DNA of 26,380 nt from a virus (taxonomy: Duplodnaviria; Caudoviricetes), in the IMG/VR virus record IMGVR_UViG_3300042349_000289, positions 1 through 26,380 of that record, one strand, 5' to 3'. Within the stretch, counting starts at the first letter, position 1; every line of letters begins with the position of its first letter. Made by a program: the position numbers and the translations under genes. Below, in pieces: positions 1,071 through 12,341 of the stretch. The notes below the pieces were generated by a model. That model was not told the origin of the DNA. It saw only the letters and a program-made list of their open reading frames with translations, and did not search any database.

Positions 1071-1549
1071 TGGACAGCATGAATAGAATCATTTGGGCAA
1101 TGATTGCAATGGCATTGATAGCAGGATTCCTATTTGGCAAAGGATGTCAAGAAAAGGGCTACAAATCGATTCTAAGACGCGATACTGTAAAAACAGTACA
1201 AACTATTGAACGACCTGTTTTCATCAAACCTGAAGTCCGTGTGAAGCAAATATTGGTTCCCTATCGTGATACAATGTATGTCAAAGAGCAATTGCCATGT
1301 GATTCAGCATTCATTGCACAGGCAGATTCAGTTATTACGACAACAGGGGACACAATTCAAGTTGCATTCTCACATATTCCATTTGACAAGTCTTTTTTCA
1401 GTATGGTAGTTAAACCAAGACCTGATTCCATATTGACAAAGACAATTGAAATTCCTATTATTCAGGAAAGCAAAACAACAGATATTGGTTGGATCATTTC
1501 AGCATTTGCCATTGGTTTGGGCATTGGCATATTGGGAGCATCAAGATGA
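1067..1549 (+). CDS. Membrane-anchored protein, possible unimolecular spanin-like lysis accessory
   Basis: N-terminal hydrophobic stretch followed by Cys27 (FLFGKG-C), beta-rich middle, C-terminal hydrophobic segment IGWIISAFAIGLGIGILGA. Confidence 0.5.
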   Translation: MMDSMNRIIWAMIAMALIAGFLFGKGCQEKGYKSILRRDTVKTVQTIERPVFIKPEVRVKQILVPYRDTMYVKEQLPCDSAFIAQADSVITTTGDTIQVAFSHIPFDKSFFSMVVKPRPDSILTKTIEIPIIQESKTTDIGWIISAFAIGLGIGILGASR

Positions 1550-2133
1550 AAGTGGCATTGACAAAACTCAAGAACAATCCGAAAAACCCGCGTGTGATTC
1601 GTGATGAAAAATTCAACAAACTGAAAAAGAGCATTGAAGATTTTCCTGACATGCTCGAAAAAAGACCATTGGTTGTATTCACTGACAAAGATGGAAAGTT
1701 TGTTGTATTGGGTGGTAACATGAGATTGAAAGCAGCAAAGGAACTTGGCATCAAAGAATTGCCTGTGATTCTTGCTGATGAATGGACAGAGGAACAAAAG
1801 GCACAATTCTTGATCAAAGACAATGTGAACTTTGGTGAATGGAATCATGAAGAATTGGCAAATGAATGGGATGCAATTCAATTACAAGAATGGGGATTGG
1901 ATTTGCCTGTAAATTTGGAAACAGAAGACATTGACTATTCAATTTTGGATGAAGATGATCTTGGCGACAAACTTCAGGAAATGCAAGATGGTGTGAAGAA
2001 AGCAATACAAATTGAATTTGATGCTGAACATTATGAAGAGGCATTCGCCGTTGTGAAGTTTTGGAGAGAGCAGGGAGCGTATGTTGGTAAGATGATTTTG
2101 GATTATCTGCAATCAGAAAAGGAAAAATTGTGA
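1546..2133 (+). CDS. ParB/Srx-like N-terminal domain protein (phage packaging-locus type)
   Basis: LKNNPKNPR…LKKSIEDFP…RPLVV…VLGGNMRLKAAKELG…KDN motifs; start placed at ATG 1546 (ATGA overlap with the upstream stop) rather than 1489. Confidence 0.88.
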   Translation: MKVALTKLKNNPKNPRVIRDEKFNKLKKSIEDFPDMLEKRPLVVFTDKDGKFVVLGGNMRLKAAKELGIKELPVILADEWTEEQKAQFLIKDNVNFGEWNHEELANEWDAIQLQEWGLDLPVNLETEDIDYSILDEDDLGDKLQEMQDGVKKAIQIEFDAEHYEEAFAVVKFWREQGAYVGKMILDYLQSEKEKL

Positions 2134-2861
2134 TTTGCTATATCCCAACAAAAAAAAGATACAATACCAAAACACACAAATTGTTTGAAAGTTCTGGTAT
2201 TAAGTTTCTGCACTTCATAGAGCCACAGGAAATAGATGCATACAATGTGCCCAATAAAATTTCTATTGAGAAAAATGACATGGGCATTGGTTATGTTAGA
2301 AATTTTATGTTGAATTTCGCAAAACAAAATAATCATGAATGGGTTATATTTTGTGATGATGATGTGAATGGATTTGGCATATACAATGGCAAAACAGAAA
2401 GGAAAGATGCAACAATATGGCATGAAATATATCAAAAGGCAAAGCAAATGCCATTTGAGTTGATTGGAATAAATTATGTTCAACATGCATGGCACGAAAA
2501 AAAAACATATTCAGTGAATTCAAAATTCGCGGAAGTATGCATTTTGGTGAACATAGCAAAAATACATTGGCAGTATAGACCACAATTTGACACAAAAGAG
2601 GACAGGGACTTTTGTTTACAAGCAATAAAATACGGCAATGGGATTCTTAGATTCAATAAGTATTGGTTCTCTTGTCCAAATGTAGGCACCAACAAAGGCG
2701 GATTGCAAGACAGTTACATAAGTAAAAAAGATGAAATAGCAGCAAAAAAAATGTGTATGGAATGGCACCCGTTTCTTCAAATGACTAATAAAAAAGGCAG
2801 GAACGATATAAAGTCCGACATAAAAGCATTGGCAAAATTTTATGGTAGGGATGTAAGATGA
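2130..2861 (+). CDS. TET/JBP-associated glycosyltransferase (TAGT/GREB1-like, GT-A fold)
   Basis: YIPTKKR N-terminus, GIGYVRNF, metal-binding CDDD (DDD at 2355-2363), KEDRDF, GTNKGGL; GTGA overlap with the ParB-like gene and ATGA overlap with the dioxygenase. Confidence 0.82.
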   Translation: MICYIPTKKRYNTKTHKLFESSGIKFLHFIEPQEIDAYNVPNKISIEKNDMGIGYVRNFMLNFAKQNNHEWVIFCDDDVNGFGIYNGKTERKDATIWHEIYQKAKQMPFELIGINYVQHAWHEKKTYSVNSKFAEVCILVNIAKIHWQYRPQFDTKEDRDFCLQAIKYGNGILRFNKYWFSCPNVGTNKGGLQDSYISKKDEIAAKKMCMEWHPFLQMTNKKGRNDIKSDIKALAKFYGRDVR

Positions 2862-3661
2862 AAAGAATTGATTTGATTAAAGTGGAACACCAAGTTAAAG
2901 TCAATGACAATTGTCCAATTATACAACCAAATGTGACGGAAGATTGCATATTATATTCCGATGGTCAGCCTATTGGATTTTACATAAAGCGTATGTCGCA
3001 ACGCATGTGTGAAATTGCTAAGATTGCAGATGTTGAATTTAGAAGTAACAATGTTCCAAAAACATTAATGGTAAGGGCAACAGTTCCAACAAAAGAAGCA
3101 TACGAATTACTAAAGAAAAATAAATCAGGCGAACAAAGGGTAAATCAATATTCTACGATATTGGGCGGTGTTCCGCCTAAGGCACAATTCAAAAGGCTTT
3201 ACGGAAATTTATCCAGTGTTCATTCTGTACAATCAGCACAAACATTCATCAAGGCAATGTTGATGTTAGCAATTGAAAGTGAAAAATTAATTGCAGAAAT
3301 TTTGCCATCACAATATGAAAGACAAAAGGAATTGTTCAAAGATGTTCCTGACAAATGGAAATTTGGCAATCTGTTTACATCATCAATTTCTAATTTCAAT
3401 ATATCAGCACCATTTCACAGAGATACGGGAAACATAGTTGGTGCAGTCAATGTCATCATCACCAAAAGAAAGAATGCAGACGGTGGCAATCTTCATGTTC
3501 CTGATTACAATGCAACATTTGATAGTTGTGATAATTCCATATTGGTTTACCCTGCATGGCGCAATGTTCATGGTGTCACACCAATTGTTCCAACGGCAGA
3601 AAGTGGATACAGGAATTCATTGATTTTTTATCCCTTGAAAGCGTTTGTTGGATTGCAATAA
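2858..3661 (+). CDS. TET/JBP-family 2-oxoglutarate/Fe(II) dioxygenase (5-methylpyrimidine oxidase)
   Basis: HxD in APFHRDTGN (3416-3424), distal His in VHGVTPI (3569-3571), 2OG-binding RNSLIFY (from 3611) matching the TET RxSxxxY pattern. Confidence 0.88.
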   Translation: MKRIDLIKVEHQVKVNDNCPIIQPNVTEDCILYSDGQPIGFYIKRMSQRMCEIAKIADVEFRSNNVPKTLMVRATVPTKEAYELLKKNKSGEQRVNQYSTILGGVPPKAQFKRLYGNLSSVHSVQSAQTFIKAMLMLAIESEKLIAEILPSQYERQKELFKDVPDKWKFGNLFTSSISNFNISAPFHRDTGNIVGAVNVIITKRKNADGGNLHVPDYNATFDSCDNSILVYPAWRNVHGVTPIVPTAESGYRNSLIFYPLKAFVGLQ

Positions 3662-3663
3662 CA

Positions 3664-4026
3664 ATGGCGTACAAAAAAGAAAACATATTGAAAGAATCAT
3701 TGGAGCTGATTGAGAAACATCACCTGATTTTCATTGATGATATCATTGGATTGTTGCCATGTTCAGCACCAACATTCTATTCTTTTTTCCCGCCTGAATC
3801 TAATGAACTTAATGACATAAAAGCAAGATTGGCAAAGAACAGAATCAGCATGAAAGCAAACATGCGCAAAAAGTGGTATCAATCAGAGAATGCAACATTG
3901 CAAGTTGCCTTGATGAAATTGATTGCAACAGATGATGAAGCTGCAAGACTATCAGGCGTGCCAAAGGAAACAAAGCAAAAGGAAGATGCATTGACAATCA
4001 AATGGAATCAAATGAATGCAGATTGA
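3664..4026 (+). CDS. terS: Putative terminase small subunit
   Basis: 120 aa, helical with an HTH-like segment (LLPCSAPTFY), overlapping the terL start; start placed at ATG 3664 just after the dioxygenase stop. Confidence 0.7.
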   Translation: MAYKKENILKESLELIEKHHLIFIDDIIGLLPCSAPTFYSFFPPESNELNDIKARLAKNRISMKANMRKKWYQSENATLQVALMKLIATDDEAARLSGVPKETKQKEDALTIKWNQMNAD

Positions 4027-5170
4027 TGTCACTCTACATAAGACACAAATGGAAGTGATGGAACAGCGCAAAAGATTCAATGTTGTAAGATGTGGCAGGC
4101 GTTGGGGAAAATCAACACTTGCTTTTGCATTGGCATTGGAAACAATGGTTGGAATGCAAGGGACAAAAGTGCTTTACACTGCACCATCGAATGAAGAATT
4201 GAAAGGCAGATATCAGGAAGCCAAGAACATGTTCACTGCCGTTGGTGCAGAATGCAAGGAAGGTGAAATTAGACTTGGTGAATCATTCCTGCACTTGAAA
4301 GGGATTTGGCGTGCTGATGCCTTGCGTGGTTCAAAATACCATAGAATGATTGGAGATGAATGGGCATATTGTGACAATGCAGAAGATGATTGGAATTTTG
4401 TTTTGCGTCCTATGCTCACTGATTACCGTGGTGATTCATTTTTCTTTTCAACACCAAAAGGAAAGAATCATTTTTCAGAACTTGATTCAATGCAAAACAA
4501 GTTTGATGATTGGCAGTCATTTCATTTCACAACTTATGACAACCCATTGATTGATGCCGATGAAGTGAATCAACAAAGGGATTCAATGCCATCACTTGTT
4601 TTTGCACAGGAATATTTGGCAGAATATGTTGATAGGGATGCAGCGAAAATCAAAAGGGAATGGATTCGCATTTCAAATCAAATGGAATGCAAATCATTCT
4701 ATATTGGTGTTGACTTGGCAATATCTGAAAAAGAAACTGCTGATTACACTGCAATTTGTGTTATTGGATTAACTGCAAAGAATGAAGTGGTTGTTTGTGA
4801 AATGATGCGAGGGCGTTGGACATTTGTTGAAATTGGTGAAAGGATTATTGCCATGGAAGACAAATGGAAACCAAAGGTTGTTGCAATTGAATCAAATCAG
4901 GCACAAGCATGGTTGGTTCAGGAACTCAAAAGAAACACAAGAATGAATGTGATTGGGATTCCAAGCACAAAAGACAAGATGATAAGATTTCAACCGATTG
5001 AAGCAAAATATGAAAGAGGGCTTGTCTATCATGTCTCTCATTTGCTTCCTGAATTCACTGATGAATTGTTATCATTCACAGGCACTAAACAAGATAGGCA
5101 TGATGACATGATTGATGCATTGTCAATGGCTTTTAATGCCATAAGAAAAACACCAAGTATTCATGTATAA
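4016..5170 (+). CDS. terL: Terminase large subunit
   Basis: Walker A CGRRWGKST, Walker B MIGDE, motif III FSTPKG, RNase H-like nuclease GVDLA…DYTA…HDDMIDA. Confidence 0.96.
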   Translation: MQIDVTLHKTQMEVMEQRKRFNVVRCGRRWGKSTLAFALALETMVGMQGTKVLYTAPSNEELKGRYQEAKNMFTAVGAECKEGEIRLGESFLHLKGIWRADALRGSKYHRMIGDEWAYCDNAEDDWNFVLRPMLTDYRGDSFFFSTPKGKNHFSELDSMQNKFDDWQSFHFTTYDNPLIDADEVNQQRDSMPSLVFAQEYLAEYVDRDAAKIKREWIRISNQMECKSFYIGVDLAISEKETADYTAICVIGLTAKNEVVVCEMMRGRWTFVEIGERIIAMEDKWKPKVVAIESNQAQAWLVQELKRNTRMNVIGIPSTKDKMIRFQPIEAKYERGLVYHVSHLLPEFTDELLSFTGTKQDRHDDMIDALSMAFNAIRKTPSIHV

Positions 5171-5179
5171 GGATTGAGA

Positions 5180-7222
5180 ATGTCACTATATGCAAACATA
5201 TTAGAGCGTGTGAAATTCATTGCAGGCGGTGTTCAGGAAAAACGCAAAAGACCACCAATTGGATATTTGAATGATGGCAGGGGAATGACATCCGTGACAT
5301 CAGGACAGGAATTGATTGCATCAGCAACAGGCACTGTTTTTGCATGTTTGCAATTGCGTGCCAATGGATTGATGTCTGTTGACATGAAACCCTTTCGTGA
5401 ATTGAATTGGGAAAAGGAAGAATTGTCAAATAGTCATTGGGTAAATCGCCTGATGAAAAATCCAAATCCATATTTCACATATTCGCAAATATTCAAGAGC
5501 ATTCAAAATTGGTTTGATATCAATGGCAATGCATTTGTGTGGACACCAAAACTCGGACATGATGTTCCATTGCAAATGTGGGTATTGAATCCAACACGAA
5601 TGAGAGTCATCAGAGGTGGTGACAATTTCATCAAAGGGTATGTATATCAATCCGCGAATGATGGTGCATTCACTTTGCCAGAAGATGAAGTCATGCACAT
5701 TGCAAATTTGTTTCCTGCATCTTCCAAACCTGATGAAATGATTGGCATGAATATATTCGGCAAAGGACTTGTTTCAGCCGTATTGCCATATGCAAGCATT
5801 GACAAAGAAGTAAGTGACTATCTTTCAAGATTCTTTGCAAATGATGCCGTTCCACCATTGATTGCAACATCAGCAGATAATGTTGATGGCGATTTGTGGA
5901 ATACATTGAAAGAGCAATGGAATGAAGCCCTGCCAAATTACAGATTGCGTGCATTGTTGGATGGTGGATTGCAATTGACAATGCCACCTGAATCACAGAT
6001 TGGAATGTCTTATGATTCAATTTCAAAAGATGTCCGCTCTCAAATTGCACAGGTGTTTGGGGTTCCAACAGGAATGCTCACAGGTGAATTCCAAAATCGT
6101 GCAACAGCAGAAGTGCAATATGCCGTGTTTAGACAGCAGACAATTGATCCTGTTGCAATTTACATGGCAGAGGAATTCACAAGGCATTTCAGACGCTATG
6201 AAGATGACATATTGATTCAGGCACAGCCGTATGAATTTGCTGATGTTGATTCCCAAATCAAGCAGGAAGAATTTGAATTGAAATATGGCATCAAAACAAT
6301 CAATGATGCAAGACGCGAAAGAGGATATGACACAATTGATGGTGGTGATGTTGCAATGCTTGTCAATGGCGTTGTTCCTATTACAACAGTAGTTTCATCC
6401 CCTGATTCAGTTACCGTTGCACCACGGGCGTTTATAGGGGCAAAAAATACTATTGTGCCACGATCATTCCCTATGGAAACAGCAGATGCAAAAGCTGAAT
6501 CATGGCGACAATATGATGAAATGGCAGAAAGCATATCAGGCAAATTGGGAATTCTTGTCAAGTCATTTGTTGAACAATTCCAAATACAAGCGGATGAAGC
6601 GGTTGCAAAAGGCTATGATGTGGAAATGTCAATGAACCTAACTGATGAACAATTGAATGAATTGAATTTGACAATTGCAGAATCAACACAAGTAGTCATG
6701 CAACAGGTTTTGTCTGATTTGGGTTTGGGCATAGAAGATTTGAGTGGGCAATTAGGGCAGGAAATTCAACAAATGACAAGAGACTTGAATGCAAATATAT
6801 CAGAGTCAATTCAAGATTCAATGTTCCTGATAAAAGATGATGTCATTGAAACAATTGCAGAGAATGCAACACAACCGAAGGAAGTGATTGATGAAATATT
6901 GCAAAGGAAATTCAGAACACTTTCAACATCAAGAACAAAGATGATTGCACAGACAACGGCAACATCAGTGACCACAGGAACGCAAAAGACTGTATTCACA
7001 GGAATGGGAATCAAATCAATGTGGAATTCACAAAGAGATGGCAGAGTCAGGCCAAGTCACAGGCGTATGGATGGACAAATTGAAAATGAACTCGGTTGGT
7101 TCAAATTTCGTGATGGTTCATTGATTGACAGACCATGTGGCAGATCACAGGGCGGAACATCGGTTGATGTTTCCAATGTGGTGAATTGCCGTTGTTATTT
7201 GTTTCCTGTTCAGGACAAATAA
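5180..7222 (+). CDS. Portal protein (HK97-type) fused to a C-terminal MuF/SPP1 gp7-like minor head domain
   Basis: Portal motifs LMKNPNPY, GNAFV, LNPTRM, IAQVFGVP, TINDARRERGY; MuF motifs WNSQRDGRVRPSHRRMDGQ and NCRC; one uninterrupted frame (ATG 5180, or TTG 5174). Confidence 0.9.
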   Translation: MSLYANILERVKFIAGGVQEKRKRPPIGYLNDGRGMTSVTSGQELIASATGTVFACLQLRANGLMSVDMKPFRELNWEKEELSNSHWVNRLMKNPNPYFTYSQIFKSIQNWFDINGNAFVWTPKLGHDVPLQMWVLNPTRMRVIRGGDNFIKGYVYQSANDGAFTLPEDEVMHIANLFPASSKPDEMIGMNIFGKGLVSAVLPYASIDKEVSDYLSRFFANDAVPPLIATSADNVDGDLWNTLKEQWNEALPNYRLRALLDGGLQLTMPPESQIGMSYDSISKDVRSQIAQVFGVPTGMLTGEFQNRATAEVQYAVFRQQTIDPVAIYMAEEFTRHFRRYEDDILIQAQPYEFADVDSQIKQEEFELKYGIKTINDARRERGYDTIDGGDVAMLVNGVVPITTVVSSPDSVTVAPRAFIGAKNTIVPRSFPMETADAKAESWRQYDEMAESISGKLGILVKSFVEQFQIQADEAVAKGYDVEMSMNLTDEQLNELNLTIAESTQVVMQQVLSDLGLGIEDLSGQLGQEIQQMTRDLNANISESIQDSMFLIKDDVIETIAENATQPKEVIDEILQRKFRTLSTSRTKMIAQTTATSVTTGTQKTVFTGMGIKSMWNSQRDGRVRPSHRRMDGQIENELGWFKFRDGSLIDRPCGRSQGGTSVDVSNVVNCRCYLFPVQDK

Positions 7223-11196: not shown

Positions 11197-11658
11197 ATGT
11201 CAAGAGAAAAACACATCACAGATGCAATCATTGAAAAACTTGGCATGATGTCAGGTGTTCGAATATATGAACAAATCCTTTTGAACAAATATGAAACATA
11301 TCAATTTGATTATGTAGGCATCTATGGTTCAACAGATGAAAGATTCACAGAGTCAATGGAAGACATGTCAGCAGTTGCTGATTTGGGCAAAATAGATTTG
11401 TTCATTCTATTGGGGAATTCAGTCAAGAAAACACCGACATTGGGTGCAGCAAAATTACGACATGCCATGCAAGAATTGGCAGAGCGTGTGGAATATTCAT
11501 TGCAAGATTTCAGGATTGAATTCTACAAATCAGATTATGAAACAACAACATTTTCACCTCTTCACTATATTTCAAGTGAACCAATTACATATTCAGATGA
11601 TGAAACAAAGGGATTGACATTGATGACATTTCGCATTTTTTACACAAGAATATCATGA
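11197..11658 (+). CDS. Putative tail terminator protein
   Basis: Size, acidity and position; MSREKHITDAIIEKL start and terminal beta strand FRIFY. Confidence 0.55.
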   Translation: MSREKHITDAIIEKLGMMSGVRIYEQILLNKYETYQFDYVGIYGSTDERFTESMEDMSAVADLGKIDLFILLGNSVKKTPTLGAAKLRHAMQELAERVEYSLQDFRIEFYKSDYETTTFSPLHYISSEPITYSDDETKGLTLMTFRIFYTRIS

Positions 11659-12341
11659 ATAATTTACTATCAGTTTGCATCATTCATCCGAAGAAAGCAA
11701 ACCTATCAAGACTAATTTCAAGATTGCCAAAAGGAACACAAATTGTTTCATGTGCAGTTGAACAAAGGGATGAATATGAAAATCAATTTGAAGTCATTGC
11801 GAACACACCAAGCATTGTTTCTATTCATTACTATTACCAAGATTATGGCATTGACTTTGACTTTGCAGAAATCAGAAACAAGATGGATGAATTGGCATCA
11901 GGTGATTGGTGTTTGCACATTGATTCTGATGAATATTTGGGAACATTCCCAGAAGATGCCATTGCAGAAATTCAGGCAATAGATGAAGCGGGTGCAGTTG
12001 GTGGATGGATTACAATTTCAGGATTGATGTATGACACAAGCCAAGAGGACAAAGTGAGGGAACGCTATTCAATCCATGCAGGAAGATTGCACAAAAAGAA
12101 TTCAGGATTGTTTTGGGAAGGTATTTGCCATGAGGCTTTGACATCCCATGATGAAACAACAGCTTTTGTTGACACTGATATTGTCTTGATTCATGATGGA
12201 TACAAAATTGATAGTGATGGCTTTGAAGACAAAGGCACAAGAAATGGAAAATTGCTGATTCGAGAATATACACGAAAACCAAGCAAGCGGGCTTGGAATT
12301 ATTTAATCAAGACTTTTTCAACACTCAAAGTGAAGGAATAA
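11655..12341 (+). CDS. Glycosyltransferase family 2 (GT-A fold)
   Basis: LSVCII, DFAEIRN, GDWCLHIDSDE (DxD), WEGICHE, LIHDGY. Confidence 0.88.
   Translation: MNNLLSVCIIHPKKANLSRLISRLPKGTQIVSCAVEQRDEYENQFEVIANTPSIVSIHYYYQDYGIDFDFAEIRNKMDELASGDWCLHIDSDEYLGTFPEDAIAEIQAIDEAGAVGGWITISGLMYDTSQEDKVRERYSIHAGRLHKKNSGLFWEGICHEALTSHDETTAFVDTDIVLIHDGYKIDSDGFEDKGTRNGKLLIREYTRKPSKRAWNYLIKTFSTLKVKE

Follow-up and report, generated by a model that had tools for sequence, protein, structure and literature searches.

An exchangeable parB–TAGT–dioxygenase cassette ahead of phage terminase genes may glycosylate oxidised thymine as restriction armour

We analysed a 26,380-nt stretch of viral DNA (Duplodnaviria; Caudoviricetes), positions 1 to 26,380 of the IMG/VR record IMGVR_UViG_3300042349_000289, which we refer to as the window. 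It carries a cassette of three genes, coding for a ParB-like protein, a TAGT-family glycosyltransferase and a TET/JBP-type dioxygenase, directly ahead of genes for the small (terS) and large (terL) terminase subunits. All five open reading frames (ORFs) lie on the same strand (Table 1). The parB gene overlaps a 160-aa ORF upstream through an ATGA (1546-1549), and overlaps of GTGA (2130-2133) and ATGA (2858-2861) join the three cassette genes. Two nucleotides separate the dioxygenase stop codon (3659-3661) from the terS ATG at 3664. These coordinates agree with a prediction made earlier from the sequence (the original prediction), which described three coupled genes ending just before terS, with intact iron and 2-oxoglutarate residues in the dioxygenase and a DDD-type GT-A site in the glycosyltransferase. 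The feature is real, and the cassette is confirmed to be as described.

Each cassette product scored above its Pfam cut-off: ParB_N reached 32.3 bits against 26.3, TAGT 51.2 against 27.5, and Tet_JBP 35.8 against 34.9, which is barely above. The product of 3664-4026 gave zero Pfam or PHROG matches, and its identity as TerS comes from position only. Contigs from two other lake runs bridge parB to the glycosyltransferase gene with zero differences; the full cassette is present on no single contig. At least half of the cassette's sequence words occurred in 10 of the 24 listed sequencing runs, all 10 from lake water and four of them possibly source runs, and no RNA run with the cassette was among the runs listed. 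A promoter/terminator scan gave 17 against 19.4 in shuffles, which is no excess.

Table 1. Features of the cassette and the adjoining terminase genes in the window.
Feature	Coordinates	Strand	Basis and remarks
ParB-like protein, 195 aa	1546..2133	+	PF02195 above cut-off; ParB/Srx nucleotide-binding domain at about residues 1-120, acidic linker, partner-enzyme-specific C-terminal part
ParB C-terminal part, residues 122-195	1909..2133	+	Residues 129-153 make up most of the predicted dioxygenase contact
Exchangeable modification slot	1902..3662	+	Left border 1901-1945 by allele, right border at terS start; blastn of near-identical phages, junctions read
TAGT glycosyltransferase, GT-A fold, GTG start, 243 aa	2130..2861	+	PF20691 above cut-off; PHROG 842; structure model
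TET/JBP Fe(II)/2-oxoglutarate 5-methylpyrimidine dioxygenase, 267 aa, MED4-184 clade	2858..3661	+	PF12851, Foldseek, tree, residues
Probable terminase small subunit, 120 aa	3664..4026	+	Position and terL overlap
Terminase large subunit	4016..5170	+	PF03237 and PF17289 (Terminase_6N and Terminase_6C matches)

Residue conservation and structure modelling support the view that the dioxygenase is a true member of the TET/JBP family. H187, D189, H238 and R252, which correspond to the HxD...H iron ligands and the 2-oxoglutarate arginine, are invariant across 49 aligned dioxygenases. A Foldseek search with the dioxygenase model (pLDDT, the predicted local distance difference test, 72) returned only CcTet, human TET2, NgTET1 and CMD1 down to rank 23. 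Because Foldseek ranks TET enzymes above other oxygenases, non-nucleic-acid 2-oxoglutarate oxygenases are not the best matches, and the TET/JBP identity in the original prediction, which PF12851 also backs, stands. A sequence search of solved structures gave no match for the dioxygenase. The label 'queuine tRNA-ribosyltransferase', assigned by PHROG and RefSeq, is ruled out by the Pfam match, motifs and fold. TET/JBP genes commonly bear this misnomer, as in NC_020847.1, NC_011044.1, other RefSeq phages and PHROG 6059.

We compared this enzyme with phage dioxygenases whose activity has been tested. In the dioxygenase search, 3665 of 4117 candidate proteins passed an E value of 0.001, and 596 of the 599 matched viral stretches encode a relative. 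Counts of clade loci in this paper refer to the best 80 of these 596. The nearest dioxygenase overall, from locus L001, is 78-80% identical, has the same ParB tail and comes from the same phage group. The closest from cultured phages are those of cyanophages MED4-184 and MED4-117, at 48% identity. Thymine has been shown to be oxidised by phage TET/JBP enzymes that occur without a cytosine methylase (O'Toole et al., PNAS 2026, PMC13229309). Clade C1 enzymes depend on a ParB-like protein encoded next to them; this partner must have both of its domains, and the pairs are fairly cognate-specific (PMC13229309). We fetched 92 C1-like and C2-like comparison loci, of which 11 lacked a usable protein. 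Among them, L082 codes for proteins whose sequences read the same as 5mYOX176 and ParB176, while the contig names of 5mYOX174 and 5mYOX98 are those of L147 and L168.

In a 30-row tree, rooted at the midpoint only, with C1 anchored by 5mYOX176 and 5mYOX174 only and with clades A, B and D (Burke 2021) left off, the dioxygenase grouped with that of MED4-184 (support 100/99), followed by actinophage enzymes, and was separate from the C1-like plus C2-like branch (100/100). Its identity is 23-30% with C1-like enzymes and 21-24% with C2-like ones. Beyond the final conserved strand, the 81 clade rows have only 8-15 residues, whereas 74 C1-like rows have 25-40. Tree position and the missing C-terminal extension rule out assignment to clade C1. 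Membership in clade C2 failed as well, on the separate branch, the 21-24% identity and the presence of the window's ParB tail in 79 of 80 loci. Sequence comparison thus places the dioxygenase outside C1, in a setting that resembles that of the ParB-partnered thymine dioxygenases. The clade might be the uncharacterised clade D of Burke 2021. We found no clade D members in the accessible O'Toole supplements, and by eye no dioxygenase resembling the window's in parts 1-2 of Dataset S11.

The ParB-like protein is 47% identical over 156 aa to the L082 protein that reads identical to ParB176, and its residues N14, R16, S29 and R60 correspond to N14, R16, S29 and R56 of ParB176. It consists of a nucleotide-binding domain and a C-terminal part (the tail), with no helix-turn-helix or recognisable DNA-binding domain. 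The N-terminal domain is common across systems, with a median of 54% identity to 63 of 81 C1-like loci. The last 55 residues (141-195) match 79 of 80 clade loci and none of the 81 C1-like loci; the ParB176 tail matches 66 of the 81 C1-like loci and none of the 80 clade loci. Tail and dioxygenase stay together even where as many as four exchangeable genes separate them, and 11 clade loci have a distant ParB-type domain in place of the ParB N-terminal domain. Because the pairing survives both changes in the intervening genes and replacement of the N-terminal domain, linkage alone is insufficient to account for it. Tail clusters follow enzyme families in the full set of 205 distinct parB records. 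Among the 74 records fetched through parB or terL, 15 of 17 tail clusters occur with one enzyme family; seven clusters are singletons, and in these 74 records linkage could account for the pairing. The comparisons indicate that each modification enzyme is co-inherited with its own ParB C-terminal part. ParB–methyltransferase fusions in phages have been noted already (PMC12704722).

A structure model points to a contact between the tail and the dioxygenase. Two copies of ParB residues 122-195 modelled with the dioxygenase scored 0.78, against 0.02 for the best of three controls. Of 157 solved complexes 116 attain the mark set for this score, as do 2 of 215 mismatched pairs; these counts apply only roughly because our runs used their own alignments and three chains, unlike the calibration. 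Runs agreed in at least 53% of contacts, and partner pLDDT was at least 85. The predicted contacts mainly join ParB 129-153, with L143, M146 and V150 among the contact residues, to dioxygenase residues 49-59, 103 and 112-139. Searches of solved structures by sequence found no relative of the ParB tail; ParB structures matched the N-terminal domain only. Different ParB tails look alike by eye (a strand, then helices), but a common fold was not borne out: comparisons among nine tail-cluster profiles gave probabilities below 7%, and the Atlas returned unnamed viral clusters only. The original prediction had the ParB-like protein targeting the modification. The model adds a predicted contact to its proposed role, and we prefer activation or docking to targeting because the protein has no recognisable DNA-binding domain. 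By analogy with C1 and from the complex model, it is likely that the dioxygenase needs ParB.

We asked how the cassette varies among close relatives. A terL search gave 27 viral and 9 metagenome loci. Thirteen distinct records (TerL 98-99% identical) and the window make up a set of 14; L204 repeats L186, and L180, L199, L202 and L212 stop short of the region concerned. Some records are possibly resamplings of one strain. In blastn, the match between the window and near-identical phages breaks off at 1901-1945 and begins again at 3657-3664, with flanks 92-96% identical in most records. The left border of this exchangeable slot falls just behind the ParB nucleotide-binding domain, and the right border is the terS start. 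L001 retains the whole parB and dioxygenase, and L211 starts inside the slot. The 14 records carry seven modification alleles: TAGT and dioxygenase in the window; a transferase, oxidoreductase and kinase with the dioxygenase in L001; a second dioxygenase alone, 25% identical to the window's, in L178 and L188; a ParB–N6/N4 methylase fusion in L179, L182 and L183; a C5-methylase in L181, L184, L185, L189 and L211; a phosphatase–cytidylyltransferase fusion with a TAGT in L186; and Mom in L187. The second TET/JBP type (L178:3053-3907 and L188:1456-2310) is extended at its C-terminus, pairs with a ParB tail of its own and lacks a tailoring gene.

Exchange at this slot extends beyond the closest relatives. 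A lineage with about 80% identical TerL also has C5-methylase, Mom, methylase-fusion and TET-less TAGT alleles, and the slot of L201 (TerL 71%) contains parB only. The TpA ratio is 0.62 in the TAGT gene and 0.54 in the dioxygenase gene, against about 0.3 in the flanks, which fits these two genes being newer arrivals. Over the whole window the TpA (0.35) and CpG (0.47) ratios are very low and TpG/CpA (1.66) is high; low TpA is common to close relatives (median 0.38-0.40) and not to other clade loci (0.83). Other phages have further parB-linked genes, for QueC-type deazaguanine, PAPS-reductase-like, ABC-ATPase/GNAT fusion and Asp/Asn hydroxylase-like oxygenase products and sulfotransferases (L222:5066-7002, L250, L240, L276, L270, L224 and L045:1684-2247). 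We found no report of allelic ParB-terminase modification slots or of allele-level tail swapping in the open-access literature.

The gene directly upstream of the dioxygenase bears on the chemistry. Across the 80 clade loci it codes for a TAGT (33), an FkbM methyltransferase (29), a P-loop kinase (9), a GT-B-like protein (7; a by-eye label, with no Pfam or PHROG match) or a sulfotransferase (1), and one locus has none. Eight of the nine kinase loci also contain an amino acid:DNA transferase or relative. On a 57-row tree the tailoring labels required 22 changes, against 25.3 when shuffled, and 12 of 200 shuffles were as low. The labels are scattered nearly as if shuffled, which indicates free exchange of tailoring genes within a single dioxygenase lineage. 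This pattern suggests one hydroxyl handle on the dioxygenase product that many tailoring enzymes can use. The FkbM-type genes (L004:7299-7997 and 28 other clade loci; L081:16431-17132 in MED4-184), the second commonest tailoring type, may make an O-methylated hydroxymethyl base.

The glycosyltransferase has the features expected of a DNA-modifying enzyme. Residues R57, D76-D77-D78 and E157-D158 form the R...DDD...ED motif of DNA-modifying GT-A enzymes; the last motif is EDR in the window and EDY/F in the published set. The PF20691 profile and a GT-A fold model (pLDDT 79) bear out the GT-A partner of the original prediction. A sequence search of solved structures gave no match for the TAGT profile. 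The window's TAGT subfamily directly precedes this dioxygenase clade in 23 of 24 loci, and the 24th is cut by a contig end. We considered whether the TAGT acts independently of the dioxygenase product, using another acceptor or DNA alone and leaving the final oxidised base unglycosylated. TET-less TAGT alleles with their own ParB tails occur in 28 of the 74 records fetched through parB or terL, and Foldseek matched the TAGT model to nothing beyond general GT-A enzymes. Such genes lie in the parB–terS slot at L186:5793-6659, L195:1570-2340 and in many of L222-L290. The closed genome of L186 (G002) gave no match to TET/JBP, thymidylate-synthase family or C5-methylase genes, and its TAGT adjoins the phosphatase–cytidylyltransferase fusion. 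Against independent action stand the 23 of 24 loci, the R...DDD...ED motif, and the fact that the TAGT occupies the position of other hydroxyl-acceptor enzymes. We regard independent action as very unlikely, and judging from gene context it is very likely that the dioxygenase product is glycosylated.

The identity of the oxidised base can be approached through neighbouring genes. The transferase, FAD (flavin adenine dinucleotide) oxidoreductase and kinase of L001 are 38%, 50% and 32% identical to those beside 5mYOX176, and kinases and transferases of this kind use 5-hydroxymethyluracil DNA (PMC8989533). No C5-methyltransferase is present in the window. One was found within the fetched flanks of 4 of the 80 clade loci and in one of five related records, there as the slot allele; two closed relatives have none outside the slot. 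These two relatives, closed by terminal repeats, measure 37.5 and 38.5 kb, so the window represents about 70% of the genome. The part of G002 beyond the window's coverage contains primase-helicase, lysis and tail-fibre-like genes, with no Pfam methylase match in 19 proteins. The thymine-type kinase and transferase beside the nearest relative, together with the lack of a cytosine methylase, make glycosylated 5-hydroxymethyluracil, a base-J-like nucleotide, the likely product. By analogy, thymine is quite likely the substrate, and the 5-hydroxymethylpyrimidine of the original prediction can be narrowed to thymine from gene context. Glycosylated 5-hydroxymethyluracil was stated in 2019 to be unreported from phages (PMC6449724), and we found no later report of it, or of phage base J, in the open-access literature.

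The substrate could instead be 5-methylcytosine (5mC), made by methyltransferases of the host or encoded in the absent 11 kb of the phage genome, with the TAGT producing glycosyl-5-hydroxymethylcytosine as in clades A and B. Pairs of a phage 5mC dioxygenase and a GT-A enzyme are proven (PMC8256090), and clades A, B and D were not placed on our tree. In vitro, 5mC too is a substrate of the tested thymine dioxygenases (PMC13229309), so host-methylated cytosine keeps a place among the candidates. The methyltransferase survey speaks against this substrate, as do the kinase and amino acid:DNA transferase partners within the same dioxygenase clade and the genome's avoidance of typical methylation sites. 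We consider 5mC unlikely.

We examined whether the modification marks DNA for packaging, as the original prediction had suggested. On this explanation, ParB would recruit the modifying enzymes to the pac region, and the resulting mark would be recognised by TerS/TerL. It draws on the tight terS–terL coupling here, in 61 of 72 clade loci, in MED4-184 and in Nigel. ParB-terminase loci were predicted earlier to modify DNA during packaging (PMC4738411, PMC8256090), and the methylation of pac in phage P1 is a precedent. The terminase data argue otherwise. Near-identical TerS and TerL (98-99%) stand beside seven modification alleles, and TerS 97-99% identical to the window's adjoins another dioxygenase type, a C5-methylase or a TAGT without TET. 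Among close relatives TerS residues 34-57 occur in three variants, encoded by a 71-nt stretch (3763-3833) with unchanged flanks that probably corresponds to the DNA-recognition helix region. These variants assort independently of the modification allele: two of them are seen beside the second dioxygenase and three beside the C5-methylase, while the variant of the window is shared by four alleles. Contigs also link the 3' end of the window's dioxygenase gene to another TerS variant; none bridges to the TAGT gene, and we did not use them as evidence. The independence of TerS variant and allele argues against a pac mark. In addition, the more distant relative L201 has parB alone in the slot, and the dioxygenase clade is joined to several unrelated small-subunit families. 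A packaging signal is distinctly unlikely.

Genome composition points to restriction. The genome strongly avoids CCGG, GGCC, ACGT, CCWGG cores, CTAG, GTAC, AGCT and GATC; CCGG was seen 0 times against 48 expected, both strands counted. Such avoidance of palindromes is read as a sign of restriction pressure. Thymine hypermodifications of other phages block 48-71% of type II enzymes (PMC6449724). A sparse, motif-specific mark could alternatively regulate late transcription or DNA handling and give little restriction protection. The tested enzymes are motif-specific and convert no more than 25-35% of thymines, and their authors raise a regulatory reading (PMC13229309). A regulatory reader, however, would need to change with each of seven chemistries in a neighbourhood that is 92-96% identical, and we consider such a role highly improbable. 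The modification probably serves as armour and not as a pac mark.

We propose that parB, TAGT and dioxygenase form one exchangeable allele whose products oxidise and then glycosylate thymine as restriction armour, and we assign this reading a probability of about 55%. The cassette would act after replication. The ParB C-terminal part would dock on the TET/JBP enzyme and activate it, and the enzyme would convert thymine in phage DNA to 5-hydroxymethyluracil. The TAGT would add a sugar to give a base-J-like base, which would shield the genome from host restriction. Position ahead of terS would provide late expression and conserved flanks for homologous exchange. A broader proposal is that the parB–terS interval is a plug-in armour socket, in which the ParB nucleotide-binding domain is a chassis, recombination directly after it brings in a new tail along with the enzyme docked on that tail, a single phage population runs through at least seven chemistries, and the window's allele makes the first phage base-J-like nucleotide. 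We offer this version tentatively and hold it to be somewhat doubtful.

Several points weigh against our proposal, beside the rough calibration of the complex model. What we propose on substrate and need for ParB is borrowed from distant relatives, given the 23-30% and 21-24% identities, and the extension that 5mYOX176 needs is missing from the window's dioxygenase. The ParB176–5mYOX176 pair did not form a stable complex (PMC13229309). The predicted interface is hardly more conserved than the rest (0.84 against 0.81 in the dioxygenase and 0.83 against 0.76 in the ParB tail). The activity of tested enzymes on 5mC counts here too, and P-loop kinases also adjoin methyltransferase-linked TETs (PMC8256090). 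TET-less TAGT alleles such as that of L186 indicate that enzymes of the TAGT family can do without a TET product. The window also falls about 11 kb short of the whole genome. Finally, terL lies within 1.3 kb downstream in 61 of the 72 clade loci with enough DNA, which armour alone leaves unexplained; late timing may lie behind this linkage, along with conserved flanks that allow exchange.

Other genes in the window surround the cassette. A metallophosphoesterase gene (207-1070) and a gene for a protein with two membrane anchors (1067-1549) lie upstream of parB in all close relatives that reach there. Downstream, 5180-7222 codes for a fusion of a portal with a head morphogenesis domain of the Mu gpF-like type (Pfam). 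A GT2-like glycosyltransferase gene (11655-12341; weak Pfam match, below cut-off) lies amid neck and tail genes, and its product possibly glycosylates virion proteins.

Three aspects of this locus appear new. The alignments and tree place the dioxygenase clade outside the tested C1 and C2 enzymes. The within-population allele series speaks for armour and suggests that the ParB tail is the adaptor. By analogy, the likely product is a phage base-J-like nucleotide. PMC13229309 left the mode of ParB activation open, and this clade offers a specific predicted interface and natural chimeras. If the interval does act as a socket, a modelable ParB contact would expose how ParB activates these dioxygenases. 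The product is a candidate for base J in a phage, and the enzymes might serve as a pair of tools to label 5-hydroxymethyluracil. Because the cultured cyanophages MED4-184 and MED4-117 carry the same clade, its substrate should be readable from virion DNA. The allele series also makes packaging mark and armour comparable within one phage population.

The general type of system is already known: ParB-terminase loci have been predicted, and ParB-dependent thymine dioxygenases have been shown. Iyer et al. 2013 reportedly predicted ParB-Tls (ParB-terminase large subunit) modification loci. The window resembles these in having parB and DNA-modifying genes directly before the terminase, but differs in that a single phage group has seven alleles of the locus, bordered within parB on one side and by the terS start on the other, and our TerS data disfavour the packaging-mark role of that proposal. 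The cassette shares with the C1 pair 5mYOX176/ParB176 a ParB of about 195 aa without a DNA-binding domain, an N-terminal domain about 60% identical to that of ParB176, a TET/JBP partner, no C5-methyltransferase, terS–terL downstream (L082), and a kinase/transferase/FAD module in the sister allele. Unlike C1, its dioxygenase falls outside C1 plus C2 and has no C-terminal extension, its ParB tail has no detectable likeness to that of ParB176, and tailoring is by a TAGT encoded between parB and the dioxygenase gene. MED4-184 has the same order of parB, tailoring gene, dioxygenase, small gene and terL, and a matching ParB tail; both MED4-184 and MED4-117 have an FkbM methyltransferase in place of the TAGT. 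The phage 5mC TET clades A and B (Burke 2021, PMC8256090; Pyle 2023 preprint) likewise combine a post-replicative dioxygenase with an R...DDD...ED GT-A enzyme, but the window has no cognate C5-methyltransferase and its genes are linked to parB and terminase. Finally, the predicted thymine hydroxylation in DNA followed by glycosylation by a GT-A/TAGT-family enzyme parallels the kinetoplastid base J pathway (JBP1/2 and JGT). In contrast to that pathway, the window's system has no J-binding or SWI2/SNF2 domain, uses a ParB-like partner, and likely serves defence and not transcription control.

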